Position numbers and translations under genes: made by a program. Source: Tepidisphaerales bacterium (GTDB lineage Bacteria; Planctomycetota; Phycisphaerae; Tepidisphaerales; Tepidisphaeraceae). Taken from it: a stretch of DNA of 64,000 nt. Below are positions 455 through 46,365 of this stretch, piece by piece; positions within the stretch are counted from its first letter, which is position 1, and the number at the start of each line of letters is the position of its first letter. The DNA is taken from the NCBI GenBank assembly GCA_038329845.1, contig JBBQNJ010000012.1:1-64000 (forward strand). Reading direction: 5' to 3'. The notes beneath the pieces are model-generated. The model was not told the origin of the DNA, ran no database searches, and saw nothing but the letters and a program-made list of their open reading frames with translations.

Positions 455-968
455 ACGGGGGGAATGTGACATAATTGCGATGTAAGAGTCTGCTATAGAT
501 GGAGTTGCAAGCCACGTCCCCAAATCCCAAATCGTGGTCGCGAAGGGATCGTCCGGTTCGCCCGAAGCGCCCGTTCGCCCGAAGCGCAAGCGAAGGGATC
601 ATCTTGGCGAAGCATCCAAGATAGGCTCCATACCTCGCCTCTGCGTGTCCGCGACACAATAAAGTTGGCCGTTATGAACCCCACCATGCAGATAAATGTG
701 ACAAAATTGTGACACAATAGTCTATAAAACATAGAGTTACACATCACGTCCCCTATTGCCGACCCAAATAGTGGTGCGAAGGGTGTGGGTTAAGGGGATC
801 GGTGGAGGACGCTCGGGGATGATTACAGTAGCCAACTGGGGGAATGTGACATAATTGTGATGTAAACATCTGTGGGAGATAAAGTTGCAAGCCACGTCCC
901 TAAATAGTGGTGTGAAGGGTGTGGATTAAGGGGATCGGTGGAGGAGGATCGGGGAATGATTACAGCAG
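455..968. repeat. Three diverged tandem copies of a ~130-bp unit downstream of sufT. Each carries a TGTGACA-N5/6-TGTGA direct-repeat core and ends with a copy of the last sufT codons (…gattacag).
   Basis: Direct alignment of 455-545, 690-830 and 838-968. Shared blocks: aatgtgacataattgYgatgtaa, gttgcaagccacgtccc, aatagtggtgYgaagggtgtggRttaaggggatcggtggagga, gatgattacag. Confidence 0.7.
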
Positions 969-1595
969 CCCGAGTTGGAGTTGGGCGGCTTCGGACATCA
1001 TGCTGCGGTCCCAGGGGGGGTCCCAGACGAGTTCGACATGGGCGCTGGTCACTTCGGGGATAGCCTGGATGCGCATCTCGACTTCGCCGGGCAGGGTGCC
1101 GGCGACGGGGCAGGCGGGGGCGGTGAGGGTCATCCGCACTTTCACGCTGTTGTCGGGACAGGCCTCGACGCTGTAGATCAGGCCCAGTTCGTAGATATTC
1201 ACTGGGATTTCCGGGTCGTAGACGCTGTGCAGGACCTGGATCACTTTGCCCTCGAGAAGCTTTCGCTCGGGTGAGATCGGTTCGGCGGGCACGCCGATCG
1301 CGGGCGGGGTGCCGGGCGCGGTGGCCGCGTCGGACCCGAGAGGAGCGGCGGACGCGCTGGGCACGCCGGGAGTCGGGGATGCGGCGGGAGTCGGGGATGC
1401 GGCGGGAGCGGGGGGCGCGGGGAGGCGGGGGGAGGGATTCTTTGCCGCGGCGGAGGACATCGCGCTGGCCTCGGCGGCTTTGGCGAGTTGATGGGCTTCG
1501 GCTCGTTCCAAGATTTTCTCCATCCGCTCGGGATGCGGGACGACGGGCAGGGACAGTTTTCGTTGCGACGACGCCGGCGGGGTTGAATCACTCAT
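960..1595 (-). CDS. sufT: DUF59/MIP18-family Fe-S cluster assembly protein (SufT-like) with an Ala/Pro-rich N-terminal extension.
   Basis: C-terminal domain KVIQVLHSVYDPEIPVNIYELGLIY…TLTAPACP is typical of DUF59. ATG overlaps the sufS stop (ATGA) and the gene lies immediately downstream of sufS. Confidence 0.75.
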   Translation of the reverse strand: MSDSTPPASSQRKLSLPVVPHPERMEKILERAEAHQLAKAAEASAMSSAAAKNPSPRLPAPPAPAASPTPAASPTPGVPSASAAPLGSDAATAPGTPPAIGVPAEPISPERKLLEGKVIQVLHSVYDPEIPVNIYELGLIYSVEACPDNSVKVRMTLTAPACPVAGTLPGEVEMRIQAIPEVTSAHVELVWDPPWDRSMMSEAAQLQLGLL

Positions 1596-3436
1596 GGGGT
1601 CGCATCCCCCCGGGCCACTTCGCCGGCCAAGGCGCGGATCCGCTTGACCATGCCCGCCAGGCCGTTGCGGCGCTGGGAGCTGATAAAGGTTTCCAGCCCG
1701 ATCCGCCGGAAGAAGGCCTCGACATCGAACGCCAGCACCTCTCGAGCACTTTGGCCGCTAAACAGTTGCTGCAGGACCGCGATCAGCCCGCGGACGATAT
1801 GGGCATCGGAGTCGGCGATGAACTCGATGGCATCGTCGGTTCCCGGGCGATGCCGGCCGTACATGTGGACGATGCTCATGCAGCCGTGGACGAGGTTGTG
1901 TTCGACCTTCAGGACGCCCGGCATCGCCGGGAGCTTTTCGCCGAGTTCGAGGAGGAACTGATTGCGCTCATCGCGGTCGCCGAGGAATTCGAGGGTATCG
2001 GCGATTTCGTCGGCGGCCTGCCGTACGGTGTCAGCGCTGGGCGCGGGATAGGGGATCGGTTGAACGGAGGAACGATTGGGGTTGCCGGCGGCGGTGGCGG
2101 CGTTGTCGGCCGGCGCGGCGGCGGCGGGGGGTACCGGCCGGGGCCTGGCGGCGGATCGCACGATTCGCTTGAGCGAATCGATCAGGGCATCGACTTCGGC
2201 GGCGGTGTTGTACATCGCCAGCGACGCGCGGATCGTTCCGGACACACCCATCCGCCGCATGACGGGCATGCAGCAGTGATGGCCGGTGCGGACGGCGATG
2301 CCATCGGCGCTGAGCCCCATCCCCGCATCCAGCGATGCAACCGGGGGGTTTTCCAGAACAAACGAAAGGATCCCGCTTTTGTGGGCCGCAGTTCCGATCA
2401 GGCGAAGGCCGGGGATATGGCGCAGCGCCGGGGTGGCGTATTCGAGCAGTTGCTCTTCATGGCGTGCGGCGCGATCGAGGCCGACGGCGCTGACATACTC
2501 GATCGCCGCGGCCAGGCCGACAGCGCCGGCAATGTTGGGGGTGCCGGCCTCGAACTTCGCGGGCAATTCGGCATAGGTGGTCGCGTCGAACGCGACGGTG
2601 GCGATCATGTCCCCGCCGCCCTGCCAGGGGGGCATCGCCTCGAGCAGCTCGCGGCGGCCGTAGAGGACGCCGATGCCGGTCGGGCCGAACAGTTTGTGCC
2701 CGCTGAAGGCGTAGAAATCGCATCCCAGGGCGCGCACGTCGGTGCGATAATGGCCGACCCACTGGGCGCCGTCGATCAGCGTCTTGGCGCCGACATTGTG
2801 AGCCAGGCGAATGATCGTCGCGGCGTCGTTGATGGTTCCGAGGGAGTTGGAGACGTGATTGACCGCCACGAGTTTGACTCGGCCGCTGGCGAGCAACTGG
2901 CGATAGGCATCGAGCAGCAATTCGCCGGCGTCGTTGATCGGAATCACTCGGAGAATCGCGCCGGTTTGCTGGCAGAGCATCTGCCAGGGGACGATGTTGG
3001 AGTGGTGTTCCATCGCCGAGATGACGATTTCGTCACCGGCGCCGAGGTTGGCGCGGCCGAAGGTCTGGGCGAGGAGATTGATCGACTCGGTGGTTCCGCG
3101 GGTAAAGATGATCTCGGCGTCTTCGGCGGCGTTGATGAATCGTCGGACGGCGGCGCGGGCGTGTTCGTAGCGATCGGTGGCGATCTGGCTGAGGGCGTAG
3201 ACGCCGCGATGGATATTGGCGTTTTCGTCGGTGTAGAAGCGGGAGATCGCGTCGATGACGGCGCGCGGTTTTTGCGTGGTGGCGCCGTTGTCGAGGTAGA
3301 CAAGTGGATGGCCGTTCATCCGGGTGGCAAGGATGGGGAAATCGGCGCGGATGGCCGAGACATCGAGCGGCGGCGGCTCGATGGGCGCGGAGATGGATGC
3401 CGGACGATCAAGCGTAATAGTGGGCGTTGCGTTCAC
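1592..3436 (-). CDS. sufS: Cysteine desulfurase SufS fused to a C-terminal SufE sulfur-acceptor domain.
   Basis: Class V aminotransferase/SufS motifs (HHSNIVPWQ, SGHKLFGPTGIGVLYG, RTGHHCC active-site Cys). The C-terminal ~200 aa contain the SufE signature (DRDERNQFLLELGEKLP…VHGCMSIVH). Confidence 0.85.
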   Translation of the reverse strand: MNATPTITLDRPASISAPIEPPPLDVSAIRADFPILATRMNGHPLVYLDNGATTQKPRAVIDAISRFYTDENANIHRGVYALSQIATDRYEHARAAVRRFINAAEDAEIIFTRGTTESINLLAQTFGRANLGAGDEIVISAMEHHSNIVPWQMLCQQTGAILRVIPINDAGELLLDAYRQLLASGRVKLVAVNHVSNSLGTINDAATIIRLAHNVGAKTLIDGAQWVGHYRTDVRALGCDFYAFSGHKLFGPTGIGVLYGRRELLEAMPPWQGGGDMIATVAFDATTYAELPAKFEAGTPNIAGAVGLAAAIEYVSAVGLDRAARHEEQLLEYATPALRHIPGLRLIGTAAHKSGILSFVLENPPVASLDAGMGLSADGIAVRTGHHCCMPVMRRMGVSGTIRASLAMYNTAAEVDALIDSLKRIVRSAARPRPVPPAAAAPADNAATAAGNPNRSSVQPIPYPAPSADTVRQAADEIADTLEFLGDRDERNQFLLELGEKLPAMPGVLKVEHNLVHGCMSIVHMYGRHRPGTDDAIEFIADSDAHIVRGLIAVLQQLFSGQSAREVLAFDVEAFFRRIGLETFISSQRRNGLAGMVKRIRALAGEVARGDATP

Positions 3437-3690
3437 AATGTCACAGTGTAGGGATGTCGGTGCCGAAAAGACGACAGGGGGAGAAGCAGAATATTCCCGG
3501 TGGCGGCGGTGAGCCTGTCGATTCAGGCCAAATTTCGATCGCCGATCGGTCTTGGCGCTTTAAGAACCGGATTTGAAATCTGAAATTGAGATCGATCGGA
3601 CGAGCGCTTCTGGAGGTAAATAGAGCGGCTACCGGAGGAGTGTTTCGGGGGGGGGGCGTGGGTGCGGTTCGAGGGAATATTCTGGATGTC

Positions 3691-3792
3691 TCGAACGCCA
3701 CTCACTTAAGGGCCGAAGTTGGCGAACTCAACTGTATTCTCGGCCGATAAGGCGGCTTTCCCCAGCCTTTTCACGTTAAGTGAATGGCATTC
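3691..3792. mobile_element. MITE-like 102-bp element, copy 1. It has 17-bp terminal inverted repeats GAATGCCATTCACTTAA and is flanked by direct repeats of CTGGATGTC.
   Basis: Reverse complement aligns nearly base-for-base with 18751-18852. Termini gaacgccactcacttaag…cttaagtgaatggcattc. CTGGATGTC is present on both sides. Confidence 0.7.
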
Positions 3793-3883
3793 TGGATGTC
3801 CCCTTTGCCCAAGCGGGCAAAAAAAATCCCCAGCCAGAATGGTTGGGGGTTTGGGGTTACGTCCCATGTTTACAGGGGCGAGG

Positions 3884-4997: not shown

Positions 4998-5010
4998 TGC
5001 TTATTTCACT
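4998..5010. repeat. 13-bp perfect direct repeat CTTATTTCACTTT, left flank of the fic gene.
   Basis: Identical 13-mer at 6270-6282. Both lie in locally AT-rich DNA bracketing fic. Confidence 0.6.
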
Positions 5011-5073
5011 TTGTGGCTCTTTATCATAATAAGATTCGTGTCCTCCGAAAGATGGGGGGCGGGGGGCGGCGAC

Positions 5074-6225
5074 TTACTCCCCTTCGCGTTGGATGGTTTG
5101 GAGGATTTCCTGCGCCAGGTAAATGCGATTGCGCTTTTGGCCGGTCAATTCGTTGAGAATGCCGGCGGTGAGAAGTTTGTCGATGGCCTTCTGAGCCGAA
5201 CTGAACTGCACATTAAGGATCTGGGCGGCGTGGCTGGTCGTGATGGCCGGATCGATGAAGAGCTGATCCACCAGCGTTGGAAGCAAGGCGGAGGCTCGGG
5301 CGGTGCGCACCCGGCGCTGATATTCGGTTCGCAACAGGTCCAGCTTCTGCACTCGGTCCATCGCATCGGTGGCTTCATGCGCCACGCCGCGGGCGAAGAA
5401 GGTCACCCATTGATTCCACGTCCCGCGCTGGCTGACGTTTAGGAGATGGCGGTAGTATTCGGCACGGTGTCGTTCCAAAAAGGCGCTGGGATTCAGCAGG
5501 GGCACGGGCAACACTTTCTGGGTACCCAGCAGCAGCAGGATGAGTACGCGCCCGATGCGCCCATTGCCATCGGCGAACGGGTGAATGGTTTCAAACTGAT
5601 AGTGGATCATTGCCACGCGGGCCAGAGGCGGCAGAGGGCTGGGTGAACGAATGAATTGTTCCAACTGCTCCATCGCCGGGCCAACTTCGTGCGGCGGGGC
5701 GGGGACAAACGTGGCGTCGGCGATATTGTTCGTGCGTCCGATGTGGGCTTGAACCGAGCGAAAGCGCCCGGGTGTTTTATCTTCCCCGCGTGCATCCTGC
5801 ATCAGAAGCTGGTGCATTTCGCGGATCAGGTCCAGACTGATGGGCCGATGCTGGACCTGTGCCAGGCCCCACTCCAAGGCGCGGAAGTTGTTGTCCACCT
5901 CTCGCACATCGGGGGCACGCTGTTCGGCCGACCGCGTCTGATCGAACAGCACCAGGTCTTTTAGACCGGCGTGGGTTCCCTCGATGCGACTGGACAATTC
6001 CGCTTCGCGGCGCAGGAATGACCGGACCAGCAGCGCGGGATTGGGAAGGCGTTGGCCGACGCCGGCGAGCTGCCCGATCGCCCGATCCGCCGTCGACAGA
6101 GCCGAGACCAGTTCGTCCGACCAGGAAAGCTTGCCCGGCAGCGGAGAGGGGACGAAGCACCAATCGCCGCTGAGATTGCGGACCAGCTCGCCGGACTTGT
6201 CGTCGGTGAAATCAGTGATTTGCAC
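5074..6225 (-). CDS. Fic-family protein (class II, with an intramolecular inhibitory helix) and a C-terminal wHTH-like tail. GTG start.
   Basis: Fic motif HPFADGNGRIGR. Upstream SSRIEG matches the (S/T)xxxE(G/N) inhibitory motif. Confidence 0.85.
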   Translation of the reverse strand: MQITDFTDDKSGELVRNLSGDWCFVPSPLPGKLSWSDELVSALSTADRAIGQLAGVGQRLPNPALLVRSFLRREAELSSRIEGTHAGLKDLVLFDQTRSAEQRAPDVREVDNNFRALEWGLAQVQHRPISLDLIREMHQLLMQDARGEDKTPGRFRSVQAHIGRTNNIADATFVPAPPHEVGPAMEQLEQFIRSPSPLPPLARVAMIHYQFETIHPFADGNGRIGRVLILLLLGTQKVLPVPLLNPSAFLERHRAEYYRHLLNVSQRGTWNQWVTFFARGVAHEATDAMDRVQKLDLLRTEYQRRVRTARASALLPTLVDQLFIDPAITTSHAAQILNVQFSSAQKAIDKLLTAGILNELTGQKRNRIYLAQEILQTIQREGE

Positions 6226-6269
6226 GCGTGGACCTCAGCCCAATTGCACTTGACCGAAATAACGATCTT

Positions 6270-6282
6270 CTTATTTCACTTT
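6270..6282. repeat. 13-bp perfect direct repeat CTTATTTCACTTT, right flank of the fic gene.
   Basis: See 4998-5010. Confidence 0.6.
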
Positions 6283-6383
6283 ATAGCATTTGAGTGTAGT
6301 AAAAGTTTTCTGGGCTGCAAGCGTCACGTCGCAAGTTCGGCCCGTGACATGGCTTGGGAAGTTGCTCGGGTCGTCGCGACGGG

Positions 6384-8050: not shown

Positions 8051-8196
8051 GGTGCGGAGAGTACCGTAAAACGCGGGGCAGCGCCAGGCAGGTCAGTCGA
8101 GGCGAACATCGTCGCGCAGGCGGACATCGTCGCGCAGGCGGGCGTCGTCGGGAAGGAAGTTCAGGGTCGAGTCCGCGCGGGGCAGCGCCAGGTGGG

Positions 8197-8654
8197 TCAG
8201 TCGAGGCGGACATCGAGCAGTCGCCAGCGGTCGCCGTCACGGGTGAAGGTGAGGGTCTGACTGGCTCGGCGGCCGGTGAGTCGGGCATCGAGGAAGACGA
8301 CCCGCGGGTTGGAGGCGGCGGAGAAATCGGCGGTGAGGGTCGCGCCTTCGTCGGCGAGGATCGCCGGCAGAGGCAGGGAAACTCGACCGATGGCGTGGGC
8401 GGCGGGGGGGCTTGGATGTGGCGGGCACCTGCGAGCAGAAGCTGGCGGAGCTGGGCATCGGCCTGGGCCGTGAGGGTTCGGCGGACGTCGGTGGCGATCA
8501 GCGACGCGATCGCGGCGGCGGCGACGGCGATGAACAGGAGGATCGCGAGGGCGGTAAGCATGGCGAAGCCGCGCGGTCGAAGGGGCGCCGCGGGCCGCTT
8601 GGGCGCGGCGGGCCACTTGGGCGCGGGGATCGAGTCAGCGCGTCTTGCCGTCAT
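8197..8654 (-). pseudogene. Third small pseudopilin-like or T2SS accessory gene. A -1/+1 frameshift at a G7 (C7 on the coding strand) tract near 8404-8410 joins two ORF-track frames.
   Basis: N-terminal frame (from ATG 8654, ATGA overlap with the upstream stop) encodes RGFAMLTALAILLFIAVAAAAIASLIAT…. A plausible C-terminal domain (…ILADEGATLTADFSAASNPRVVFLDARLTGRR…RLLDVRLD*) is in the other frame. The switch point coincides with the homopolymer. Confidence 0.5.
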
Positions 8655-10791: not shown

Positions 10792-12030
10792 TTAGAAACC
10801 GCCTCCGCTGACGCTGCGTAGCAGCCACAGAAGCGGCGCGAACATCGCCAGGATCACCGCCACGATGATCAAGCCGATCACGATCAGCAGCAGCGGGGAG
10901 AGAATCGCCGGGATGGTGGCGATGCGATGCTGGGCCTGCTGCTGGTACATCCGCGAGAGGGTGGCGAGGGTTTGCGAGAGGCTGTTGCGTACGGCGGCGA
11001 TGGACATCGCGGCGATGACGGTGGGTGGGATTGCGCGCAGGTGAGTGGCGGCCGCGGCGAGCGATTCACCGCGCATCATCGCCTCGTGTAGCACTATCGC
11101 GTCGCGGCGCAGCACCGGGGTGGCGACGGCGTCGGCGGCGAGGTCAAGCGATCCGGGCAGGTCGATCCCGGCGTCGATGCCGAGGCGCATCGCATCGCAC
11201 CAGCGGGCGAGTCTCGCCTTCTGGACGATGCGCCCGATGAGCGGAAGATGAACGAGCAGTTGATCGCCCAGATTGATCCCCATCATCGCGAGAATCCACA
11301 CGCCGAGGATGCATACGACCAGGGCCGCGGCGACCACGGCGCTGATCAGGGGCAGGCGATGGGCAAGGTAGAAGAGGGTCCCGGTGAAGGCGGGCACCTG
11401 CGTTCGGAACCCCTGGAAGATCTCTTCGAAGCGCGGGACGACGTAGAGCAATAGAATGGCCATGACTCCGATCAACGTCGCCAGCACCGCGACGGGATAG
11501 GCCATCGCCCGCCATAGGGCTTGGCGAAGGCGAGCGATCATTTCCAGGTGGGCGCCGAGATTCAGCAGCATTTCCGGCAGTCGGCCGGAGCGGACGCCGG
11601 CATCGACCAGGCGGGCATACAGTCGCGGGAACTGGGCGCGGTGATGCTCGATCGCTTGGGGCAATGACACACCGCGATCCAGCTCATCGCAGACCTGCGC
11701 CACCGAGCGGGCCAGGCGGCCGCTGCGCATGTCCTGGGCGATGAGGCGCAGGCCCTGCTCCAGCGGCATCCCGGCCTGGGCCAGGCTCGCCAGTTGCTGA
11801 TTGAATGCAGCGAAATCGGCGCCGCGGATCGGCCGGGGTCGCGGCGGCGGGTCGGCGGGGATCATCTCGATCACGCGAAGGCCGAGGGACTCGAGGCGAA
11901 GGCGCGCCGTGTCCATGTCGGCGGACTCGATCGTGCCGGATAGCGGCGCGCCGTCACGCGATTGGGCGTGGTAGGAGAAGTTCAGCGGCGCGGGTGGGGG
12001 GTCGGGAGTATCGTCAAGCATGGGGATCAC
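10792..12030 (-). CDS. gspF: GspF/PilC-family inner-membrane platform protein, paralog 1.
   Basis: 412 aa, cytoplasmic N-domain + TM helices typical of T2SS/T4P platform proteins. Directly downstream of gspE. Confidence 0.8.
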   Translation of the reverse strand: MIPMLDDTPDPPPAPLNFSYHAQSRDGAPLSGTIESADMDTARLRLESLGLRVIEMIPADPPPRPRPIRGADFAAFNQQLASLAQAGMPLEQGLRLIAQDMRSGRLARSVAQVCDELDRGVSLPQAIEHHRAQFPRLYARLVDAGVRSGRLPEMLLNLGAHLEMIARLRQALWRAMAYPVAVLATLIGVMAILLLYVVPRFEEIFQGFRTQVPAFTGTLFYLAHRLPLISAVVAAALVVCILGVWILAMMGINLGDQLLVHLPLIGRIVQKARLARWCDAMRLGIDAGIDLPGSLDLAADAVATPVLRRDAIVLHEAMMRGESLAAAATHLRAIPPTVIAAMSIAAVRNSLSQTLATLSRMYQQQAQHRIATIPAILSPLLLIVIGLIIVAVILAMFAPLLWLLRSVSGGGF

Positions 12031-12075
12031 CTTGGGTCATCTGGGATTCCTCGCGCGGCGTCGGCGATGGCATCG

Positions 12076-13245
12076 TCAGGCATGGACGTGACCTCGGGTC
12101 ATTTGGGATTCTTCGCTCGGCGTCGGCGCTGCGGGGTTTGTTTCGGGCGGGCCGAGGACGCGAGAAACTTCGGCGTGATCGGTGATCCCTCGGGCGACCA
12201 GGTCATCGGCGGCTTGACGCAATGGAACATAGCCGGTCAGGCGCTGCGCCGTGCGGCGCATCGCATCGGCATCGGCGCGGTCCAGGATCAGTTGTCGCCA
12301 GGCCGGGTCCATCGCCGCGAGTTCGGCCAGGGGGGTTCGCCCGGCGTATCGTGCTGTGCCATCGGCGCTGGCGAGGCGACGGATCAGCCGCAGCGCCAGC
12401 ACGCCGTGGACGGCGCTGGTGAGCTGATAGGGCGCGATGCCCATGTCGAGCAGGCGCCCGACGGCGCCGGCGGGGTCGGAGGCGTGCAAGGTGCAGAGCA
12501 GGCGATGGCCCGACAGTGCGGCCTGGATCGCCAGGGCGGCGGTCGCGGCGTCACGGATTTCGCCGAGCATCAAGACCTGCGGGTCCTGGCGAAGAATACT
12601 GCGCAGAGCCCGCTCGTACGTCAGTTCGCCGAAGGGGGAAACTTCGATCTGTGTTATGCCGTCGAGCCGGCGCTCGACGGGGTCTTCGAGGGTGATGATG
12701 CTCAGTCCGGGATGCGTGTCGGCGATCAACTTGAGGAGGGCGTAGAGGGTGGTGGTTTTGCCCGAGCCGGCCGGGCCGGTGACGATGAGCATCCCGGCGT
12801 CGGCGGCGGCGTATCGGCGCAGCGCCGCGACGATGGGGGAGGGCAATCCCAACGCATCGAGAGATCGCGGTGCGGTCAGCTCGGCGGGCAATCGCACCAC
12901 CGCCCGAAGGCCGTGGGCGGTGGGGATCACCGCGAGGCGCGCCTCGGCGGGCTGGGTCGATCCCGGCGGGGCGGGGATGGCGAGGCGTCCTTCCTGGGGG
13001 ATGTCCTGGCGGTAGGTGAGCAACTGGGCCATGACCATCAGTCGGTTGACCATGGCCCGCCCGGCGGCGGCGGAATGGCGCTGGGCGGTCTCGACCAGCC
13101 CATCGACGCGAAGGCGCAGCTCGTATCCTTGCGCCGTCGGCTCGACGTGGATGTCGGAGGCCCGGCGGCGCATCGCCTCGATCAGCAAGCTCTGGAGAAT
13201 CTCCGGAGCCTGCGTGTCGCTCGCCGAGGATGCTGACGATCGCAT
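12076..13245 (-). CDS. gspE: Short GspE/PilB-family secretion ATPase (N2 + C-terminal ATPase domains only, no N1 domain, no tetracysteine motif), ComGA-like.
   Basis: Walker A GPAGSGKTTT. N2 motifs ASDIHVEP…RLRVDG. Asp box and His box context (ILRQDPQVLMLGEIRD). Confidence 0.85.
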   Translation of the reverse strand: MRSSASSASDTQAPEILQSLLIEAMRRRASDIHVEPTAQGYELRLRVDGLVETAQRHSAAAGRAMVNRLMVMAQLLTYRQDIPQEGRLAIPAPPGSTQPAEARLAVIPTAHGLRAVVRLPAELTAPRSLDALGLPSPIVAALRRYAAADAGMLIVTGPAGSGKTTTLYALLKLIADTHPGLSIITLEDPVERRLDGITQIEVSPFGELTYERALRSILRQDPQVLMLGEIRDAATAALAIQAALSGHRLLCTLHASDPAGAVGRLLDMGIAPYQLTSAVHGVLALRLIRRLASADGTARYAGRTPLAELAAMDPAWRQLILDRADADAMRRTAQRLTGYVPLRQAADDLVARGITDHAEVSRVLGPPETNPAAPTPSEESQMTRGHVHA

Positions 13246-13330: not shown

Positions 13331-13378
13331 TTGCACTGGACCCCGCATCGCCGTGGCGGGTATCGGCGCCAAAAGGCG
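13331..13378. promoter_or_regulatory. ~47-bp conserved motif (TGCAsTGGmCCyyGCATCGCCGTGGCGGGTATCGGCsCyArAAGGC) upstream of the gspE operon. A second copy is at 15314-15360.
   Basis: ~85% identical copies lie in two different promoter regions. Adjacent TCTTTTCTRTTGT motif also at 15365 and 15430. Confidence 0.4.
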
Positions 13379-13406: not shown

Positions 13407-14873
13407 CTACGTCCTGCTCAGTCTCGTCATCGAATCGCTGGCGGCGAGCGTCGCATCATCGCCCGCGTCTTTCTGCCACGCCTGCAGTTGCCGATGCAGA
13501 TCGGCCAGGCGCGCGCGCTGCTCCGGCTGCGCCGCGAGGTTGTGTCGCTCGCCGGGATCGGTGTTCAGGTTGAACAGTTCCAGTTCGCCAGTGTTGGTAT
13601 AGTTGCTATATCGCCAGCCATCGGTGCTGATGATGGTGCGGCTGGCCACTGTGGGCATGTCCTGTACGATAACGCACGGTGAGGCATCCGCTCGCACATC
13701 AATCGCGCGGCCGGTGTTGCTGGCTTCGCGCAGCAGCGGTGCCAATGACCGCCCATGCAGCCCTTCGGGCACATCGGCGCCAAGAAGGTCGAGCAGCGTC
13801 GGCATCAGGTCTATCTGGCTGATCGGCCCGCCGAGTCGGGCTGCGCGGCGCTGGCCCGGCAGCCGGATCAGCAGGGGTACCATCGTCGCCTCGCGATACA
13901 GCGTGCTCTTTTCCAGCAGGTGATGGCTGCCCATCATCTCGCCATGGTCGCTGCTGAACACGACGATCGTGTTCTCCGACAGGCCCTGTTGCGCAACCGT
14001 GTCGAGAATGCGCCCGATGTGCGTATCGACCAGCGAGCACAGGCCCAGATATCGCGCGGTCAACTCGCGCCAACCCGCTTCGGTGTTCAGGTCGTGGTCT
14101 TGGTAGCCGTCACGGCGGTACCGCTCGAGCCGATCGCGCGTCACCTGGGGAAGTAGCGCCGTTTCGTGTGGAACGGCATCGGGCACGTGATTGAAGTTGC
14201 TGAACATCGGCACCGCCGCCTCGTCGTACTGCCCGTCGCGGCAACTGTGGAATGGCATGTGTGGTTCGAGGATGCTTACCGTCAACATCCACGGCCGGTC
14301 GCGGTGCTGGCGGATGAACTGGCACGCATGATCGGCCAGGAACCGCGGCTTGCAGTAGTGTTCGGGCAGTTGGCTGGCGAACGCCCGCGGGAACACATCG
14401 CGCACGCCCAGCCGGAAGCCTTCGCTGAGCAGGTAGTGGTGGTAGTCGCTACGATCGCGCCTGTCACGCTTGCTGCTGAAGTGGTTCCAATAGATATCCT
14501 CGACGGACACGAACCGTTCATAGCCGTGCTGGGCATACAACTCATCGCCGAGGTGCCACTTCCCGTGATACTCGACGCGGTAGTCGCGGCGCACATCCGG
14601 CGGAAGACACTCGGGCAGACAGCGCGCGTCTTGGCGCAAGGGAATGTTGTTGTCTGTCGCCCCGTGAGCGTGCGGGTACAGCCCGGTCATTATCGACCCG
14701 CGCGACGGCGTGCATACCGGGTTCGTGCAGTATGCCTCATCGAACACGCACGACGAGTCAGCCAGCCGATTCAGATTCGGCATCGCAGCGTAGTCATTGC
14801 CGTAACACGCCAGCGTGTCGCGGCGTTGCTCGTCGGTAAACACGAACAATAAATTCGGCCGGTCGCTTTTCAT
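13407..14873 (-). CDS. Sulfatase (arylsulfatase family, Cys-type) with no obvious signal peptide.
   Basis: N-terminal LLFVFTDEQRRD and the CTPSRGS (C-x-P-x-R) formylglycine motif. Starts MKSDRPN with no hydrophobic leader. Confidence 0.85.
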   Translation of the reverse strand: MKSDRPNLLFVFTDEQRRDTLACYGNDYAAMPNLNRLADSSCVFDEAYCTNPVCTPSRGSIMTGLYPHAHGATDNNIPLRQDARCLPECLPPDVRRDYRVEYHGKWHLGDELYAQHGYERFVSVEDIYWNHFSSKRDRRDRSDYHHYLLSEGFRLGVRDVFPRAFASQLPEHYCKPRFLADHACQFIRQHRDRPWMLTVSILEPHMPFHSCRDGQYDEAAVPMFSNFNHVPDAVPHETALLPQVTRDRLERYRRDGYQDHDLNTEAGWRELTARYLGLCSLVDTHIGRILDTVAQQGLSENTIVVFSSDHGEMMGSHHLLEKSTLYREATMVPLLIRLPGQRRAARLGGPISQIDLMPTLLDLLGADVPEGLHGRSLAPLLREASNTGRAIDVRADASPCVIVQDMPTVASRTIISTDGWRYSNYTNTGELELFNLNTDPGERHNLAAQPEQRARLADLHRQLQAWQKDAGDDATLAASDSMTRLSRT

Positions 14874-15313
14874 GGTAAACTGATAGGAACTTTAATTCCG
14901 CGGGGGTTTATGGAATGGTTTGAGGGAGCGGGGGGTTCGGGGGAGCGGGGGGAGTTTTCGGGACTCATTTCGCCCTCCAAGAGGCCCAATCCCATCGCTG
15001 AGACACGCCGTGAAGCCTACTTCGCGGTTTCCTTGACGCCCGGAGACCGTCCTCGAGCAACTCGAATCCAGAGTACCACCGGTCTCGATGCAAGCAAGAA
15101 CGAATGAAGGGGACGTCGCTCTTCACGCCGGAGATGGGGCGCAACTGCTGACCGTGCTGAGCGACTGGCCGGTGGAGCGGCCGCGCGACCGGACTTCCTG
15201 GGTAAGCCAGCCGCAGACGGCGGCGGAACTGGCTTCACCGCGCGAACACGTGCGCCGCGGCCGGCCATACGGCGACGAGGCGTGGACCGCCAGACGGCGT
15301 GGCAACTGGATCT

Positions 15314-15360
15314 GCAGTGGCCCTTGCATCGCCGTGGCGGGTATCGGCCTCAGAAGGCAC
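15314..15360. promoter_or_regulatory. Second copy of the 47-bp conserved motif, inside an 865-bp non-coding region between the sulfatase and nfeD.
   Basis: See 13331-13378. Followed by two TCTTTTCTATTGT repeats and GCAAGATGsCTGC repeats. Confidence 0.4.
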
Positions 15361-16352: not shown

Positions 16353-18016
16353 TGTCCAGCGCGATTGTCCCGGCTTCGTGGTTGCCTTTGTTGGCTGAGC
16401 GTTCGTCGGCCAGCAGCGATTCGACGTTCTGGCTGCTGGCGCTGGTCCTGTTCGTCGCGGCGCTGTTCGTCACCTTCTTTCTGCTGCTGTTCAATCGCTA
16501 CAAGCGCTGCCCGAGCAATCGGGTGCTGGTGATCTTCGGCAAGATCGGCGGGGGCAACACGGCCCGCTGTATCCACGGCGGGGCGGCGTTCATCTGGCCG
16601 TTGATCCAGGACCACGCCTACCTCAGCCTCGAGCCGATCCAGATCGACATCGAGCTGCATGATGCGCTGTCCAACGAGAACATTCGCGTGAACATCCCCA
16701 GCGTCTTCACCGTCGCCATCGGGACCGACCCGGCGATTATGCAGAACGCGGCAATCCGGCTGCTGGGGCTGAATACCATGCAGATCAAGCAGCAGGCGTC
16801 GGACATCATCTTCGGCCAGCTTCGCCAGGTGATCGCGTCGATGCGCATCGAAGACATCAACCGCGACCGCGAGGCGTTTTTGCACAATATCCAGACGTCG
16901 CTGGAGCCGGAACTGCGCAAGGTCGGGCTGGTGTTAATCAACGTGAACCTGCGCGACATCACCGACGCCAGCGGGTACATCGAGGCGATCGGGCAGAAGG
17001 CCGCCAGCCAGGCGATCCAGCAGGCTCGCGGCGATGTGGCCGACCAGGAAAAGCTCGGCGAGGTGCGCGTGGCCGAAGCGCGGCGGGAGAAGGACATCCA
17101 GGTGGCCAACGCGTTGAAGACCCGCGAGATTGGCATGCGCGAGGCGCAGCGAGAGCAGCTTGTGCGGGTGGCCCAGCTCGAGAAGGAACAGAAGGTCGGC
17201 GAGCAGACCGCCGGTTACGAGCGGGATGTGCAGGTGAAGGCGGCCGAGCGTGAGATGCGCATCAGCGTCGCCGATGCCAACGCCAAGGCGATCGCCGGTG
17301 AGGCCAAGGCGCAGGCCGAGGTCGTCGCCACCCAGGCGCAGTTGCAGGTCAAGCAGGCCGAGGCGTATCAATTGGGCGAGACCCGCAAGCGCGAGAGCGA
17401 GGCGGCGGTGCAGGAAGCGCAGAACCGTGCGATGGCGAAGGCGGCTTTGGCCCAGGCCGAGCGCGTCGAGGCCGAGCGGCGGGCGGCGGTGGAGGCACCG
17501 GCCAAGGCCGAAAAAGCGAAGATGATCGTGGATGCCGAGGCGTCGGCGGAAAAGCGTCGGATCGAGGCTCAGGGCGAGGCATCGGCGATCTTCGCCAAGC
17601 TCGAGGCCGAGGCCCGCGGGCAGTTCGAGATTCTCGCCCGCAAGGGAGAGGGTCTCAAGCAGATCATCGACGCCGCGGGCGGGGCCAAGGAGGCGTTTCA
17701 GTTGCTCATGCTCGAACACCTCGATCATCTGGCATTGACCGCGGCGCAGGCGATCAGCAACATCAAGTTCGACAAGGTGGTGGTCTGGGAAAACGGCTCG
17801 GGGGGCAGCGGCAACGGCAACGGCAACGGATCAAGCGCCACCGGCAACTTCCTGCAAAGCATGTCGCGCACGCTGCCTCCGATGATGCAGGTGATGCGTG
17901 ACATCGGCGGGGTTGAGCTGCCGGACTACCTGGTCAAGCTCAAGGACGACGTCGTGGCGGCCAACGTCGATGTCCCGCCGGGGCCGACTCCCAAGCGGGA
18001 AGCCGGGGAAACCTGA
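16349..18016 (+). CDS. Flotillin-like SPFH/band-7 protein (YqiK/FloT type).
   Basis: N-terminal TM, SPFH domain, long Ala/Glu/Lys-rich coiled-coil. RBS aaggag upstream. The track ORF 15926.. has an artefactual N-terminal extension. Confidence 0.85.
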   Translation: MMSSAIVPASWLPLLAERSSASSDSTFWLLALVLFVAALFVTFFLLLFNRYKRCPSNRVLVIFGKIGGGNTARCIHGGAAFIWPLIQDHAYLSLEPIQIDIELHDALSNENIRVNIPSVFTVAIGTDPAIMQNAAIRLLGLNTMQIKQQASDIIFGQLRQVIASMRIEDINRDREAFLHNIQTSLEPELRKVGLVLINVNLRDITDASGYIEAIGQKAASQAIQQARGDVADQEKLGEVRVAEARREKDIQVANALKTREIGMREAQREQLVRVAQLEKEQKVGEQTAGYERDVQVKAAEREMRISVADANAKAIAGEAKAQAEVVATQAQLQVKQAEAYQLGETRKRESEAAVQEAQNRAMAKAALAQAERVEAERRAAVEAPAKAEKAKMIVDAEASAEKRRIEAQGEASAIFAKLEAEARGQFEILARKGEGLKQIIDAAGGAKEAFQLLMLEHLDHLALTAAQAISNIKFDKVVVWENGSGGSGNGNGNGSSATGNFLQSMSRTLPPMMQVMRDIGGVELPDYLVKLKDDVVAANVDVPPGPTPKREAGET

Positions 18017-18078
18017 GGCGGGCGGTTGCCGGCGCGGCGGAAACGGTGGATGTCACCTTTTCCCATGTCAGTGGCCGA
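17975..18078. repeat. Native flotillin 3' end plus downstream ~60 bp. A diverged copy of this ~100-bp segment lies at 18672-18880, beyond hicBA.
   Basis: ccgccggggccgactcccaagcgggaagccggggaaacc…ggaaacggtggatgtcaccttttcccatgtc versus gcgccgccgactcccaagcaggaagccgaggaaatt…ggaaacggtggatgtcac[MITE]gtggatgtcaccttttcccaagtc. Confidence 0.65.
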
Positions 18079-18641: not shown

Positions 18642-18671
18642 GCAGTCATACAGAAATAGTGGATGGCGGCC

Positions 18672-31647: not shown

Positions 31648-31670
31648 GCGACGGTTCGGCCGCCGGAAAG

Positions 31671-31872
31671 TTTTGTAGGGTGGGGCTTGCCCCACCATTT
31701 CCGAATGGCAACGAAATGGGTAACACTTCAGCCGTCTGCCGCGATTCCCGTTTTTGCGGCCTCAGTCAAGTTGGGTCTGTCTGCTGACCCGCGATATCAG
31801 CCTCAGAATCAACGTGCCGGCATTTGGCTGAAATGTGACCGAAATGGTGGGGCAAGCCCCACCCTACAGAAA
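31671..31872. mobile_element. ~120-bp repeat element (core 31724-31840, 8-13-bp imperfect TIRs cacTTCAGCCG) embedded between two 30-bp perfect inverted repeats, each containing a GGTGGGGC-nn-GCCCCACC hairpin. Second core copy at 50965-51080.
   Basis: Core aligns ~92% to 50965-51080. Flanked here by direct CGAAATGG. Outer palindrome ttttgtagggtggggcttgccccaccatttc … gaaatggtggggcaagccccaccctacagaaa. Confidence 0.65.
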
Positions 31873-32074
31873 CTGGATCGATAGCATCAACCGATGCCCC
31901 GGAACGCCGGCGGCCCGGATCACCTTCGGCGAACGCTTGATTGCGCGGTGATCCGGGGCGGTGGAGCGATTCGCAGAGTCGTTGCGAGCGCAGGCAGGGC
32001 GATCGTGGCAGATGCAGGACGTAATTTGCCGCCGACGTCCTCAGCAACGGGATCATCGCTTATCGGCGTGGCGG

Positions 32075-33727: not shown

Positions 33728-33825
33728 GAGCCGGATGATACCCGAGTCCGGGCCGTTGCGGGGGATGAGGGCTCTGGGCCGGATTGGCCCCGCGGGACGA
33801 TCTACGATCGCGATCCGATGGCGGT

Positions 33826-33980
33826 GGAGGTCGAGCGGATGATCTTGGGAATCACGTGCTGGGTGGTGAGGGTATCGGCGCGATCGAGCATTTGCGCGAA
33901 GATTTTTCTCCAGCGGCTCGGTTCGGCGGTCACCCCAGTAGCGGCGAAGGCTCAGGTAGACGTTGATACGCCCGAAAGAG
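33826..33980 (-). pseudogene. Diverged ~155-bp fragment copying the 3' end (last ~45 codons, stop retained) of the hypothetical gene at 34407-35156.
   Basis: ~85% nucleotide identity to 34407-34572 with one 1-bp indel. Translated tail …PKIIRSTSTAIGSRS* versus …MPKIVKSISSAIASRS*. Confidence 0.6.
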
Positions 33981-34037
33981 TCAAGACGCCCGAAAGAGTC
34001 AAGACGCCCGAAAGGGTCAAGACGCCCGAAAGGGTCA
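33963..34037. repeat. Tandem repeat of 4-5 copies of an 18-bp unit (ACGCCCGAAAGRGTCAAG).
   Basis: gagtcaagacgcccgaaagagtcaagacgcccgaaagagtcaagacgcccgaaagggtcaagacgcccgaaagggtcagg. Confidence 0.85.
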
Positions 34038-34118
34038 GGTGCATCGGATCAGGCGTGAGGCTCCGAAAGCCGAGGTGCTGCACTTGGAGTGGGCTTTCCG
34101 CCAACGCGGTGAGCGCAT

Positions 34119-34370
34119 GTGAGCGACTGGCACCAGAGGGACCTGACCCTTTCGGCCTTCCTTGATGACCACGACTTTTCAAACCCTTGGAAATGTCTCA
34201 ATGCTGCCCGGGTGAAGTATATGAAGGCCTCCGAGGGGGTCCGCCGGAGGATTCGAGAGGATCCGGAAGTCGCTGAGTCGGTTCTATTGAAAGCAGGAAT
34301 CGTTGTCGAGGAGAAGTCCGGTTCATCTCGATTTGGCGTGAAGTTGGCCAAGCGGTTCCGAACTGCTTGA
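34119..34370 (+). CDS. Hypothetical small protein (83 aa) in a lower-GC pocket between the 3'-end duplicate and its parent gene. Coding status uncertain.
   Basis: Open frame with moderate, non-repetitive composition (…VKYMKASEGVRRRIREDPEVAESVLLKAGIVVEEK…). No recognisable family. Confidence 0.3.
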   Translation: MSDWHQRDLTLSAFLDDHDFSNPWKCLNAARVKYMKASEGVRRRIREDPEVAESVLLKAGIVVEEKSGSSRFGVKLAKRFRTA

Positions 34371-34406
34371 CCTCGAGCTTGGGTGTTGCCGTTGCCGCGT
34401 CGCGGG

Positions 34407-35156
34407 CTAGGAGCGCGAGGCGATGGCGCTGGAGATGGACTTGACGATCTTCGGCATGACGTGATGGTTGGCCAGGGTATCGGCGCGATCGAGCATTTGC
34501 GCGAAGATTTTCTCCAGCGGCTCGGTTGGGCGGTCGCCCCAGTAGCGGCGAAGGATCAGGTAGACGCTGATGGCGTCCTCGGAATAGTCGCCGGTGCGGA
34601 CTTGGTAGCTGTTGGTGCGGGTGACCACGTCGATGCGGGCTTGCAGCCGGCAGTCGTCGCTGAGGGCGACGATGACGCTGGGCTGGAAATCGACGGGTCT
34701 GGCGCCGGGCTCTTCGGCCAGGCAAGACAGGGGGCTGTCGGCGAAGAGGCTGTCGGCGACGATCTCATCGTGATTGCCGGTGCAGTTCAGGTCGAACCCG
34801 AAGAGCAGATCGAGGTAGTCGATCTCGAGGGGGCTGACGCCGAGGTGGAACGGGGCCAGTTCGAGCAGCAGGCCATGCAGTTTCAGGGTTTCATCCAGGC
34901 TCTGGGGATTGACGTGGCCGCTGTAGAGTCGGCGCGCCTCGAGCGACGCCCAGCGATATGACGGGTTGCGCCGGTCTTCCTCGAGGGTGACTTCGCCACC
35001 CTCGCCTTTTCGCAGCCGCCCCATCGCCGGGAAAGCCTTTTGCACGCGCTCGAAGAAATGCAGCACGGTCTCCCGGCTGTTGGGCAGGGCAAGCTGCGAT
35101 CCGAGTCGCATGTTGACGTAGAAATCGTCGCAAAAGGGGCAATACGGATTCGACAT
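34407..35156 (-). CDS. Hypothetical protein (249 aa, N-terminal CPFC motif).
   Basis: Long ORF with balanced composition. Its 3' end is duplicated at 33826-33980. Confidence 0.6.
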   Translation of the reverse strand: MSNPYCPFCDDFYVNMRLGSQLALPNSRETVLHFFERVQKAFPAMGRLRKGEGGEVTLEEDRRNPSYRWASLEARRLYSGHVNPQSLDETLKLHGLLLELAPFHLGVSPLEIDYLDLLFGFDLNCTGNHDEIVADSLFADSPLSCLAEEPGARPVDFQPSVIVALSDDCRLQARIDVVTRTNSYQVRTGDYSEDAISVYLILRRYWGDRPTEPLEKIFAQMLDRADTLANHHVMPKIVKSISSAIASRS

Positions 35157-41711: not shown

Positions 41712-42089
41712 CTAATAGGCGCGTAACATTGAAAGCCTCTCAAAGGTGGCAAAGTGCTTCACGTTGAGGGTATGCACCGCCAACTCGGGCCGCAACGCGG
41801 TGGCCGCGATCTGACAGTCCGGCCAATCTACCCCATGTGAAAGTCGCCTTTTCTTCAAAAGATCGAGCGCCGCCAAGGCATCGGCTTCGCTCGGGGAGAT
41901 GATCTCGCATAATCCTAAAAACGACTCCATGCGATCTTGCTCTTCTCGATTGCGATCGCCGACCAAAATCTCCGTGGCAGCCATGACGGGTGTCGCCAGT
42001 AGCGCTTGCGATCCGACGTGTCTGACCGCCGCTTCCCTGCCGCGCAAGCAATCGATCAGGATGGAACTGTCCAAAATGGCGCTACTCAT
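41712..42089 (-). CDS. vapC: PIN-domain ribonuclease toxin (VapC-like).
   Basis: 125 aa. Conserved acidic residues (ILDSSILID…, E in TEILVGD, D in HGVDWPD). Overlaps the upstream antitoxin gene by 8 nt. Confidence 0.75.
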   Translation of the reverse strand: MSSAILDSSILIDCLRGREAAVRHVGSQALLATPVMAATEILVGDRNREEQDRMESFLGLCEIISPSEADALAALDLLKKRRLSHGVDWPDCQIAATALRPELAVHTLNVKHFATFERLSMLRAY

Positions 42090-42312
42090 CGTCCCGTCGC
42101 ATCAGCGTTTGTCGCAATAGCTTCACCGCATCAGCCGAATCCTCTGGCAGATCGGCTCGATCCTTCCATATCCCCACCGCCGGATGGTGACGCAAACGAT
42201 CAATCCCTGCGTTGGCGGACGCGACCGGTGTCACGTCAACGATTGTTCCGTCACCTAGCTTTTCTCCGTCGATCACCACCACCCCATTGTTCACGATTCC
42301 GCGGTACGTCAT
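42082..42312 (-). CDS. Putative antitoxin partner of VapC (76 aa, swapped-hairpin/AbrB-like N-terminus).
   Basis: MTYRGIVNNGVVVIDGEKLGDGTIVDVTPV… resembles small DNA-binding antitoxins paired with PIN toxins. Gene order and overlap are typical for type II TA. The track ORF has an artefactual N-terminal extension. Confidence 0.55.
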   Translation of the reverse strand: MTYRGIVNNGVVVIDGEKLGDGTIVDVTPVASANAGIDRLRHHPAVGIWKDRADLPEDSADAVKLLRQTLMRRDDE

Positions 42313-42554
42313 GGCGGTCCTCCTGTTCGATGTTGATTTTAGTCGCTCGAATCCCCCCGGTCTCCCGGCCCCCCAGTCCCCCCGCGGCGAGGAATCGGCA
42401 ACCGCACTGCTCAGCCCAGAAACGCAACACAACGCCGATTCAGGACGGTGGCAGCTTGGGCGGAGAATCAGCGGCGAGAAGGCGATACGGTCAAGGTGAC
42501 AGGAGTTTTACCATGTCACCGCCTCATCTCCCGCGCGGACTGTCCATCTCGACG

Positions 42555-45212: not shown

Positions 45213-45348
45213 CCGTGTACCGGTGTCGGTGGCGAGTTTTCGCCTTGGCGCTCGCTTTTGCCGGCGATGCGAGAGGAGATTCGGGTCAGACGCGCACGGG
45301 GACGCGCTGCTGATGTGGGTCCGTCGGACGGCGACCCGCTCTTCGGGC

Positions 45349-46365
45349 TCACACGCGCACGGGGACGCGCTTGCCGGCGCGGGCGGATTCCATGGCGGCG
45401 AAGACCATGGCCAGGCTCTTGATGTTGTCGTGGCACTCGCCGTTGGGCGTGGCACCGGTTTTCAGGGCGTTGAGGAAATCACGGATCGACCCGGCGATTC
45501 CCGACGGGGCATTGGCCGGCTCACGGGTCAGGCGCTCGGTCTTGGGCATGAAACCGCCCGGCTCGATCACTCGGTCGGCGATGGGATCCGCAGCGCCATC
45601 CCAGGTCGCGGTGCCGTTGGGGCCGACGGCACGCCATTCCGATTCCCAACTGGTGTGCAGTCCATCGCTGCACCAGCTTCCGCGATAGGTGTAGCGCAGG
45701 CCGCCGGTCATCTCGAAAATGGCCGTGGCGCAGGCGTCGCCCTTGTACCAGCTCCAGGAGGGGTTGAACTCCTCGCAGTAGACGTTGATCGGATCGGCAC
45801 CGCAGAGGTAGCGGGCGGCATCGAGGGTATGGATGGCCATGTCGAGCATGAGAGGGCTGGGCATTTCATCGCGGAACCCGCCGAAATGAGCGCCGATGTA
45901 GAAGTCGCTGTTGAGGATTCCCAGCGGTCCGACATGATCGATGATCAGTTGTCGCAAGGCATGGAGTTTGGTGTTATAGCGCCGGCTCTGGCTGACGATG
46001 TAGAGTTTTCCAGAGCGCTCGGCGGCCTGGACCATGGCGCGGGCGTGTTCCATCGAGTCGGCCATTGGCTTTTCGCCGATCACCGGGACGCCCGCGGCCA
46101 GTGCCGCCAGCGTCACGTCGTGATGGGCCTCGGGGATCGTCACATCCACGACGAAATCGGGACGAAGCTCGGTGAGCATTTTCGGGTAGTCGGTGCCGGT
46201 GGCCACGCCGGTTATTTCCAGCTTGGCCGCGGCCTGTTCGGCCTGGCCGGGTTTGATGTCCACCCAGCCGGCGAGCTGTACCTGGTCAAAGTCGCGCAGG
46301 TTCTTGGCCCACGACTGTCCCATGCCGCCCGCGCCTACCAGTAACGCCCGAAGTTGTTGAGCCAT
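45349..46365 (-). CDS. Gfo/Idh/MocA-family NAD(P)-dependent oxidoreductase.
   Basis: N-terminal Rossmann LRALLVGAGGMGQSWA, conserved EKP motif (VIGEKPMA), C-terminal alpha/beta domain. Confidence 0.8.
   Translation of the reverse strand: MAQQLRALLVGAGGMGQSWAKNLRDFDQVQLAGWVDIKPGQAEQAAAKLEITGVATGTDYPKMLTELRPDFVVDVTIPEAHHDVTLAALAAGVPVIGEKPMADSMEHARAMVQAAERSGKLYIVSQSRRYNTKLHALRQLIIDHVGPLGILNSDFYIGAHFGGFRDEMPSPLMLDMAIHTLDAARYLCGADPINVYCEEFNPSWSWYKGDACATAIFEMTGGLRYTYRGSWCSDGLHTSWESEWRAVGPNGTATWDGAADPIADRVIEPGGFMPKTERLTREPANAPSGIAGSIRDFLNALKTGATPNGECHDNIKSLAMVFAAMESARAGKRVPVRV

Follow-up and report, generated by a model that had tools for sequence, protein, structure and literature searches.

Six duplicated gene tails in a Tepidisphaerales contig: stop-spanning tandem duplications and gene-tail repeats around small inserts

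Genes whose ends are repeated around a piece of inserted DNA are known from several systems. In Escherichia coli, prophage e14 and phage 21 lie in icd between two copies of the last ~54 codons of the gene, stop included (PMC6379469). Experiments have shown that a circle with a fragment of a gene end, when it integrates by a single crossover, leaves 109-950 bp of this end in duplicate (PMC3240628). For toxin-antitoxin (TA) modules in chromosomes, and for tiny islets without visible mobility genes, the route of entry is still debated; a proposed model for the TA modules has them arrive with a mobile element and the neighbouring genes streamlined away afterwards, leaving small islands that contain only the TA genes (PMC13617665). 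Here we describe six duplicated gene tails in 64,000 nucleotides of a metagenome-assembled genome (MAG) from a Tepidisphaerales bacterium (positions 1 to 64,000 of contig JBBQNJ010000012.1, assembly GCA_038329845.1; this whole 64-kb stretch is called the window, and positions are counted in it). At two of the loci, L3 and L4, gene-tail repeats of 104-177 nt lie on both sides of inserted DNA. The other four (L1, L2, L5, and the junction of the T2SSE and T2SSF genes) are head-to-tail tandem duplications of 62-136 nt that span a stop codon and contain no insert. The six duplicated tails are a genuine pattern with heterogeneous, known causes, and the loci fit already known kinds of event, of which they are fresh examples, better than one mechanism.

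The window has a GC content of 64% and carries a suf operon, a type II/IV secretion-pilus cluster, sulfatases, a flotillin, and HEAT-repeat and DUF1559-type proteins; the best matches of its genes are in Planctomycetota. Comparison of the window with itself by BLAST returned 15 repeat pairs at E<=1e-3. We defined a local repeat locus as a direct repeat whose copies are less than 2 kb apart, and eight such loci are present. Since none were found in 40 composition-matched simulations (block-wise first-order Markov; at least 42 bits), a chance origin is excluded. A stop codon is included in six of the eight. The other two lack one: at 7639/7708 a hydrolase gene contains an in-frame duplication of 69 nt, and at 13332/15313 there is a 46-nt repeat with a hairpin in it. 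When the eight repeat geometries were re-placed at random, a mean of 0.86 contained a stop, against the six observed (P<5e-5), and the mean was 1.31 when the junction was confined to non-coding DNA (P=4e-4). At all six stop-linked loci one copy holds the stop of a gene that is backed by domain hits or coding statistics, and the copies at all loci have diverged by 7-17%. A sequence-only reading of this DNA had listed five duplicated tails, all of which are present, with coordinates that were exact or off by a few bases; the self-BLAST added the T2SSE/T2SSF junction.

At L3 the end of the flotillin gene is found on both sides of a toxin-antitoxin pair:

17966 to 18078, plus strand: copy A, the last 11-17 codons of the flotillin gene, its stop TGA (18014-18016), and about 55-62 nt downstream
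18233 to 18641, plus strand: insert (GC 0.60) with a hicB-like antitoxin gene (18233-18450) and the HicA toxin gene (18447-18641)
18658 to 18880, plus strand: copy A', made up of 18658-18750 and 18854-18880, with the stop lost (TGA to TGG) and split by the element on the next line
18751 to 18853: element of 103 bp within copy A' that resembles a miniature inverted-repeat transposable element (MITE), with an 11-nt target duplication GTGGATGTCAC

The first tail is followed by 154 nt, then by hicB and hicA, and then by the second tail. Positions 17983-18056 match 18677-18750 at 86.5% (E=4e-18), and a gapped alignment extends copy A to 17966-18069. The HicA protein matches PF07927 (E=9e-9). The 72-aa gene upstream shares 4 nt with hicA and matches no Pfam or NCBIfam family; it is kept next to hicA in two other contexts (L081 and L087), and as called in a further one (L082) it is 144 aa long. 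The pair thus has what defines a HicAB system, a HicA domain and a small upstream partner that is kept in relatives. The nearest relatives of this HicA have 83-84% identity; two weaker matches (81% and 70%) are labelled Verrucomicrobiae. Relatives of the whole pair (75-84% related) are found in three unrelated contexts, and the nucleotide similarity spans both open reading frames (ORFs) and stops at their ends. With its lower GC (0.60 versus 0.64 for the window), the 83-84% relatives in three unrelated contexts, and the confinement of the similarity to the ORFs, hicBA looks foreign. The C-termini of other flotillins were considered as a guide to which copy is ancestral, but the tail is too variable among homologues to serve as one.

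At L4 the duplicated tail belongs to a gene for a protein of 249 aa (34407-35156):

33790 to 33967, minus strand: copy A', a pseudogene tail in which the 54 codons recur and a TAG (33802-33804) aligns with the stop of copy A
33968 to 34394, no strand assigned: insert (GC 0.58) with four tandem 18-nt units (33968-34037), one further unit in inverted orientation (34141-34165), and an orphan ORF of 83 aa (34119-34370, plus strand)
34395 to 34589, minus strand: copy A, the functional end of the 249-aa gene, with its last 54-60 codons and the stop TAG (34407-34409)

The two copies (33802-33967 and 34407-34571) are 86% identical (E=5e-49) and are separated by an insert of about 430 nt. The 249-aa gene is conserved in planctomycetes, with 1,727 homologues; the closest ones listed are 69-74% identical and nearly all 249 aa long. 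Between the copies there are 22 differences, 3, 8, and 11 at first, second, and third codon positions, and the distal copy has one frameshift in a run of A (A5 versus A4). Twelve of 55 residues differ, and the similarity of the translations is above that expected from random substitutions (BLOSUM P=0.003). In a comparison with 100 homologues, the proximal tail has the family residue wherever the alignment is invariant or nearly so. Five of these sites are changed in the distal copy, which nevertheless shares the most common residue of the family at three positions that vary; the five altered sites and the frameshift identify it as a decaying pseudogene tail. The 83-aa ORF has no family match, and a search of 1.84 billion representative proteins returned one marginal match.

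A third case, in which this layout is unambiguous, comes from another genome. In a Thermoguttaceae MAG (CAXXPV010000004, 2740-6338; L033) the last 58 codons of clpB and the stop are repeated 959 nt downstream (5202-5379 and 6161-6338), and the similarity stops at the stop codon, which is TGA in one copy and TAA in the other. The two copies enclose an antitoxin-like ORF and a gene for a VapC-family toxin with one premature stop; after repair of that stop the toxin gives a full-length match to TIGR00028 (E=1.6e-11), below the curated cut-off. The 16 differences between the two clpB tails are distributed 1, 2, and 13 over the codon positions and change a single amino acid. Differences that are almost purely synonymous mean that both tails evolved as working ends of clpB, and therefore that one of them came with the cassette. 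This locus is a clean natural case of a toxin-antitoxin cassette that brought a replacement gene tail. The same comparison applied to a known integration, the icd tail of E. coli K-12 and icdC at the far end of prophage e14, served as positive control and gave 165 nt at 92.7% with 12 differences (1, 0, and 11 by codon position). Further stop-linked inserts with flanking repeats are found at L074, where the insert holds a 323-aa ORF, and at L143, where it holds a DUF4058 ORF.

The tail repeats at L3 and L4, stop included, surround non-host DNA as they do in icd; this is not so for L1, L2, L5, and 12010-12133, where there is no insert. For L3 and L4 our analysis lends most support to one-sided integration, in which the incoming molecule already had a copy of the gene tail. 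A circle with a copy of the gene's 3' end would have integrated by one crossover. The crossover may have been site-specific, as for e14 in icd, with the recombinase gene lost later, or it may have been mediated by RecA, in a Campbell-type event or by homology-facilitated illegitimate recombination. The gene-proximal tail would then keep the gene functional, and the displaced tail would be free to decay, as the frameshift at L4 and the lost stop and later MITE at L3 suggest. The integrase and other cargo would since have been deleted, leaving the addictive toxin-antitoxin pair, which would resist loss, in line with the islet model (PMC13617665). In about 60 ORFs scanned across the window we find no integrase, transposase, or reverse transcriptase domain, and the inserts at L3 and L4 are just 0.43-0.57 kb long. 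Pfam scans of the window also revealed no IntI-like protein; no attC model was run. With neither a tRNA nor an Rfam match found, we rejected a tRNA or known RNA as the integration target, and also the idea that the repeats are RNA genes. Spacers templated from elsewhere in the window were rejected as well, as there are no significant matches.

The tail repeats around hicBA and clpB-vapBC provide physical evidence for integration by a single crossover or of the att type, over replacement by double crossover. A more far-reaching idea is that small selfish cassettes, especially TA pairs, spread in Planctomycetota without an integrase: they would carry a copy of the tail of a conserved host gene, enter by a single homologous crossover at this tail, persist by addiction, and be released by recombination between the tails as circles that could enter another host, and the flotillin-hicBA locus, the 249-aa locus, and clpB-vapBC would be three such captures. 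We consider this rather unlikely. If it were true, frequent captures would account for the high density of duplicated tails here.

The remaining four loci have a simpler structure:

455 to 971, minus strand: L1, three tandem low-GC units (455-686, 687-834, and 835-971) downstream of a sufT-like gene
960 to 1595, minus strand: FeS-assembly gene (SufT-like, PF01883, by Pfam) with its tail inside L1 and a TAA stop at 960-962
8072 to 8279, minus strand: L2, a 104-nt tandem duplication at the end of a pseudopilin-like gene (8197-8654), with the proximal unit at 8176-8279 and the distal unit at 8072-8175
12010 to 12133, minus strand: 62-nt tandem duplication at the T2SSE/T2SSF junction, the sixth locus, found by self-BLAST and absent from the sequence-only reading
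45279 to 45403, minus strand: L5, a 62/63-nt tandem duplication at the stop of a Gfo/Idh/MocA gene, with the proximal unit at 45341-45403 and the distal unit at 45279-45340

Simple tandem duplication describes units 2 and 3 of L1 (136 nt), 12010-12133 (62 nt), L2 (104 nt), and L5 (62/63 nt). In all of these the working stop is in the gene-proximal unit and the other unit is untranslated. The units of L1 range from about 136 to 232 nt; unit 2 (148 nt) and unit 3 (136 nt) are complete tandem repeats, and each ends in the last 11 nt of the sufT-like gene, stop included (copies at 815-834 and 951-971). The BLAST alignments join 763-833 with 899-970 (90%, E=1e-19) and 455-525 with 835-905 (83%, E=9e-14). 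The GC content of L1 is 0.51, compared to 0.64 for the window, and its units have no fold signal (z from -0.3 to +0.5), no convincing promoter, and no Rfam match. At L2, 8072-8111 matches 8176-8215 at 92.5% (E=7e-9), and a gapped alignment covers about 83-98 nt of the 104-nt period. The working stop is at 8197-8199; the distal unit has a second stop context at 8093-8095 and contains an 18-nt sub-repeat that was expanded in tandem (8100-8150). At L5 the match is between 45280-45308 and 45342-45371 (93%; E=5.5e-4 window-wide for copies that are only 62 nt apart), and the gapped alignment of about 55-60 nt takes in nearly the whole period. Both L5 units are in frame and encode RVPVRV followed by a stop, at 45349-45351 in the Gfo/Idh/MocA gene and at 45286-45288 in the distal unit. 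Because the similarity at L2 and L5 extends over nearly the whole period, these are true tandem duplications. The duplication in the secretion cluster (12010-12069 and 12072-12131, 83%, E=2e-10) copied an overlapping stop and start (ATGCYTGA) and parted the T2SSE ATPase gene from the first T2SSF gene, which formerly overlapped: the T2SSE stop is now at 12076-12078, the T2SSF ATG at 12019-12021 is in the other copy, and an 18-codon leftover ORF lies between them.

Three side observations concern these loci. Every L1 unit contains a TGTGAC-N5-TGTGA direct-repeat motif (463-480, 695-712, and 843-860; TGTGACATAATTGTGA in units 1 and 3), and a related TCACA-N3-TCACA lies in the opposite orientation at the start of the suf operon (3430-3447); these motifs are possibly binding sites of a regulator on both sides of the operon. 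The pseudopilin-like gene (8197-8654, minus strand) becomes one ORF only when a single base is inserted into or taken out of a C7 run near 8400; either the MAG has a homopolymer sequencing error here or the frameshift is genuine. A unit length of 62-63 nt is common to three separate tandem duplications (12010-12133, 45279-45403, and 62042-62153), and this could be a coincidence or a favoured slippage distance.

For the tandem class, slippage or unequal exchange together with selection is sufficient. Replication slippage or unequal exchange most likely created the duplications of 62-136 nt. Those wholly inside a gene would usually destroy it and be lost unless they were in frame, and those that include the stop would leave an intact gene with an untranslated extra tail, which would be harmless and so persist. 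Two in-frame internal duplications are retained in the window (7639/7708, 69 nt, and 6848/6913, 33 nt), as such a filter predicts. A rough hand estimate, u/(g+u) for 62-136-nt units and spacers near 200 nt, leads one to expect a stop in around 30% of the surviving tandems; four of about six (units of at least 30 nt) have one, an excess that is not significant (binomial P~0.07). Repair acting at stop codons or terminators, which the sequence-only reading had offered as one cause, is not needed here. The tandem class also carries a caution, in that duplicated stop contexts are mostly what selection lets persist and not the sign of a machine directed at 3' ends.

We ran the same pipeline on 160 comparison loci (1.81 Mb, mostly from other Planctomycetota), 80 with a flotillin gene and 80 with the 249-aa gene. 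The 66 repeat clusters found there comprise 33 protein repeats inside one gene, 15 purely intergenic clusters, seven with a stop, four with a stop and a start, three with a start only, and four others; stop-spanning repeats are thus commoner than start-only ones in these genomes too. Their density is 0.39 per 64 kb, compared to six in the window, a difference of about 15-fold. This excess is suggestive and no proof of a lineage-specific cause; gene calls in the comparison loci were crude (GC3-based) and the window was chosen after the pattern had been spotted. The proposed enrichment at 3' ends stands as a significant link to stop codons and a high local density, though similar repeats also occur in other genomes. 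None of the 80 flotillin loci and none of the 80 loci of the 249-aa gene has a duplicated tail, and a recurrent integration hotspot was rejected on these grounds. Among 80 related genome loci none is syntenic with the window. The proteins of the nearest public relatives are 74-81% identical (81% for the next best flotillin and 74% for the next best 249-aa protein), and the closest flotillin locus is from a Tepidisphaerales MAG (76% identity). Directly downstream of that closest flotillin relative lies a 71-nt tandem repeat array (L001, 11781-12183); the gene tail itself is not duplicated.

Taken together, we think that the six tails are probably, though far from certainly, long-standing traces that two ordinary processes left in a genome rich in repeats and with long spacers between its genes. 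Several observations weigh against this reading. For the flanked loci, there is no integrase remnant and no identical att core at L3 or L4, and no relative with an empty site is at hand; relatives of hicBA in three other genomic contexts have no flanking repeats. The absence of these repeats, together with similarity that ends at the ORF ends, led us to reject a mechanism intrinsic to the hicBA cassette. The coding part of the L3 repeat is only 11 codons, which give no codon-position signal and are too few to test, and the codon signature of L4 is ambiguous, as it would also fit a duplication in situ with one copy constrained and the other decaying. Across the window, the ~15-fold density and the higher stop fraction are not explained by survivorship alone: six of seven non-genic clusters contain a stop in the window, versus 11 of 29 in the controls (hypergeometric P=0.03, computed by hand). 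Survivorship also predicts comparable numbers of start-spanning duplications, and the only one in the window spans a stop as well. Finally, no locus has a recent copy, all being 7-17% diverged. Some feature of this genome may make small duplications arise more often or persist longer.

An alternative explanation is that each of the six loci is the scar of an integrative element that targeted a gene 3' end. If this were the case, then L3 and L4 would be intermediates of an erosion series, and the tandems would be end stages in which the cargo was deleted and attL- and attR-like tails became adjacent. Such a series would unify the anchoring at stop codons; tail repeats of 26-177 nt are within the range of att duplications (165 nt for e14), and other accessory modules, a second toxin pair of the PIN type and a Fic/DOC gene with a flanking direct repeat, do lie between genes of the window. 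However, L1, L2, L5, and the T2SS locus are similar over the whole period and have no unrelated spacer, so that exact deletion of cargo would be needed at four loci; the T2SS duplication is within an operon, between translationally coupled genes, which is an unlikely integration site; and no integrase is found anywhere in the window. We regard the series as unlikely, and of the proposal of integrative elements or capture we retain the part that concerns L3 and L4, where the analogy with e14 in icd and with clpB-vapBC holds, and not the four loci without an insert. L3 and L4 could also have originated in two steps, with an ordinary tandem of the tail formed first and unrelated DNA inserted between the copies later. 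Tail tandems are common in the window (four cases), and the MITE at L3 shows that later insertions happen. Nevertheless, the insert is located exactly at the copy junction in both L3 and L4 and not inside a copy, and clpB copies that differ nearly only at synonymous sites are unexpected for a non-coding duplicate formed in situ; we give the two-step origin little credence.

The sequence-only reading had suggested a lineage-specific mechanism that acts at gene 3' ends; a dedicated mechanism of this kind would duplicate these ends by a recombinase or by repair at terminators or stop codons. The stop in six of eight local repeats, which is significant even under the null with non-coding junctions (P=4e-4), and the ~15-fold density over the comparison loci are in its favour, and so would be two motifs: ATGTCAC(A/C)TT, found close to where the L1 units and L3 have their distal boundary, and TGGATGTC, which is over-represented (8 versus 2.3 expected). 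However, the excess of both motifs comes mainly from the MITE target site and from the duplications themselves, and direct side-by-side reading of the six stops and breakpoints revealed no common motif. The repeats are of two structural kinds, the window holds no candidate enzyme gene (no integrase, transposase, or reverse transcriptase), there are no recent copies, and the same signature, a local repeat that spans a stop, is present in unrelated genomes of other Planctomycetota and of Hydrogenedentota. A single mechanism of this type is thus quite improbable. The source is a MAG contig of 78,943 bp, and strain variants of one region could have been chained during its assembly; we judge this very improbable. 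Copies diverged by 7-17% are too different for chained strain bubbles, and unique DNA lies between them. The distal copy of L4 is, by its frameshift and its altered invariant or nearly invariant sites, a pseudogene and not a live allele, and in the distal copy of L3 the stop is missing and a MITE has inserted and made a target duplication of its own.

The MITE at 18751-18853 has terminal inverted repeats, a target duplication, and a second copy in the window. The 17-nt terminal inverted repeats read GAA(C/T)GCCA(C/T)TCACTTAA. The second copy (3692-3792) is 86% identical, lies in the opposite orientation, and is flanked by the direct repeat TGGATGTC, which corresponds to GTGGATGTCAC at L3; the unoccupied target site is kept in copy A of L3 (18047-18070). 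Both copies are in the same motif of about 30 nt, (T/G)GGATGTC(A/C)CCTTT(T/G)CCCAAG..GGGCA, which is found at 3793-3819, 18047-18070, and 18854-18881. This shared motif, with its TGGATGTC duplication, suggests that the MITE has a strong target-site preference.

Other repeats are present in the window. A 200-bp element (31669-31874) has 33-nt terminal inverted repeats (97%), and its 119-nt core recurs 19 kb away (50963-51080, 94%). A dispersed repeat joins 239-334 with 21163-21259 (inverted, 91%). The 46-nt hairpin-containing direct repeat (13332-13377 and 15313-15358, 85%) lies on both sides of a sulfatase gene (13407-14873) and may be a repeated terminator-like element or mark the edges of an inserted gene. 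The two further accessory modules, both between core genes, are a PIN-domain toxin gene with a small upstream partner (41712-42432, minus strand) and a Fic/DOC gene (5074-6225) in a low-GC patch, with a 33-nt AT-rich direct repeat on both sides (5000-5032 and 6270-6302, 73%). In a 700-nt spacer filled with repeats, a lysine-rich ORF of 22 codons (MAKKAAKKSSKKTTKKTTKKSK, 61757-61825) has a strong AGGAGG ribosome-binding site and is followed by a clean hairpin and T-run terminator (61945-61981).

Among known systems, tandem duplications by slippage or unequal exchange are the counterpart of L1, L2, L5, and the T2SS junction, with which they share head-to-tail repeats of 62-136 nt and similarity over the whole unit; they differ in that all four loci include a stop and that the density is well above that of the comparison genomes. 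For L4, the imperfect 165-nt repeat of a gene 3' end nearby recalls a diversity-generating retroelement. However, the mismatches are of mixed types (C/G, A/G, C/A, and T/C) and not adenine-specific, the distal copy is frameshifted, and the window contains no reverse transcriptase; we rejected this possibility. The likeness to e14 in icd goes further: there, too, the gene stays intact through its proximal tail, the distal tail (icdC) is a pseudogene, and the repeat has the same 165 nt as in L4. However, e14 spans 15 kb, encodes an integrase, and has a crossover core that is identical, compared to inserts of just 0.4-0.6 kb without a recombinase at L3 and L4; the L4 changes are not concentrated at third positions (3, 8, and 11, versus 1, 0, and 11), and the L3 repeat is mostly non-coding. 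Campbell-type and homology-facilitated illegitimate recombination duplicate a gene end around cargo without a dedicated integrase, which fits the absence of an integrase here (PMC3240628), although these processes are known from conjugation in laboratory E. coli and from naturally competent species and not from Planctomycetota. In our search of the paper on TA islets (PMC13617665), duplicated tails of a flanking gene did not come up; a duplicated 24-bp res-like palindrome is reported there at one locus. In other respects the islets are close to what we find: hicBA stands by itself between core genes without a mobility gene, and the premature stop in the vapC gene of the Thermoguttaceae cassette matches the step of the model in which the toxin becomes a pseudogene (PMC13617665).

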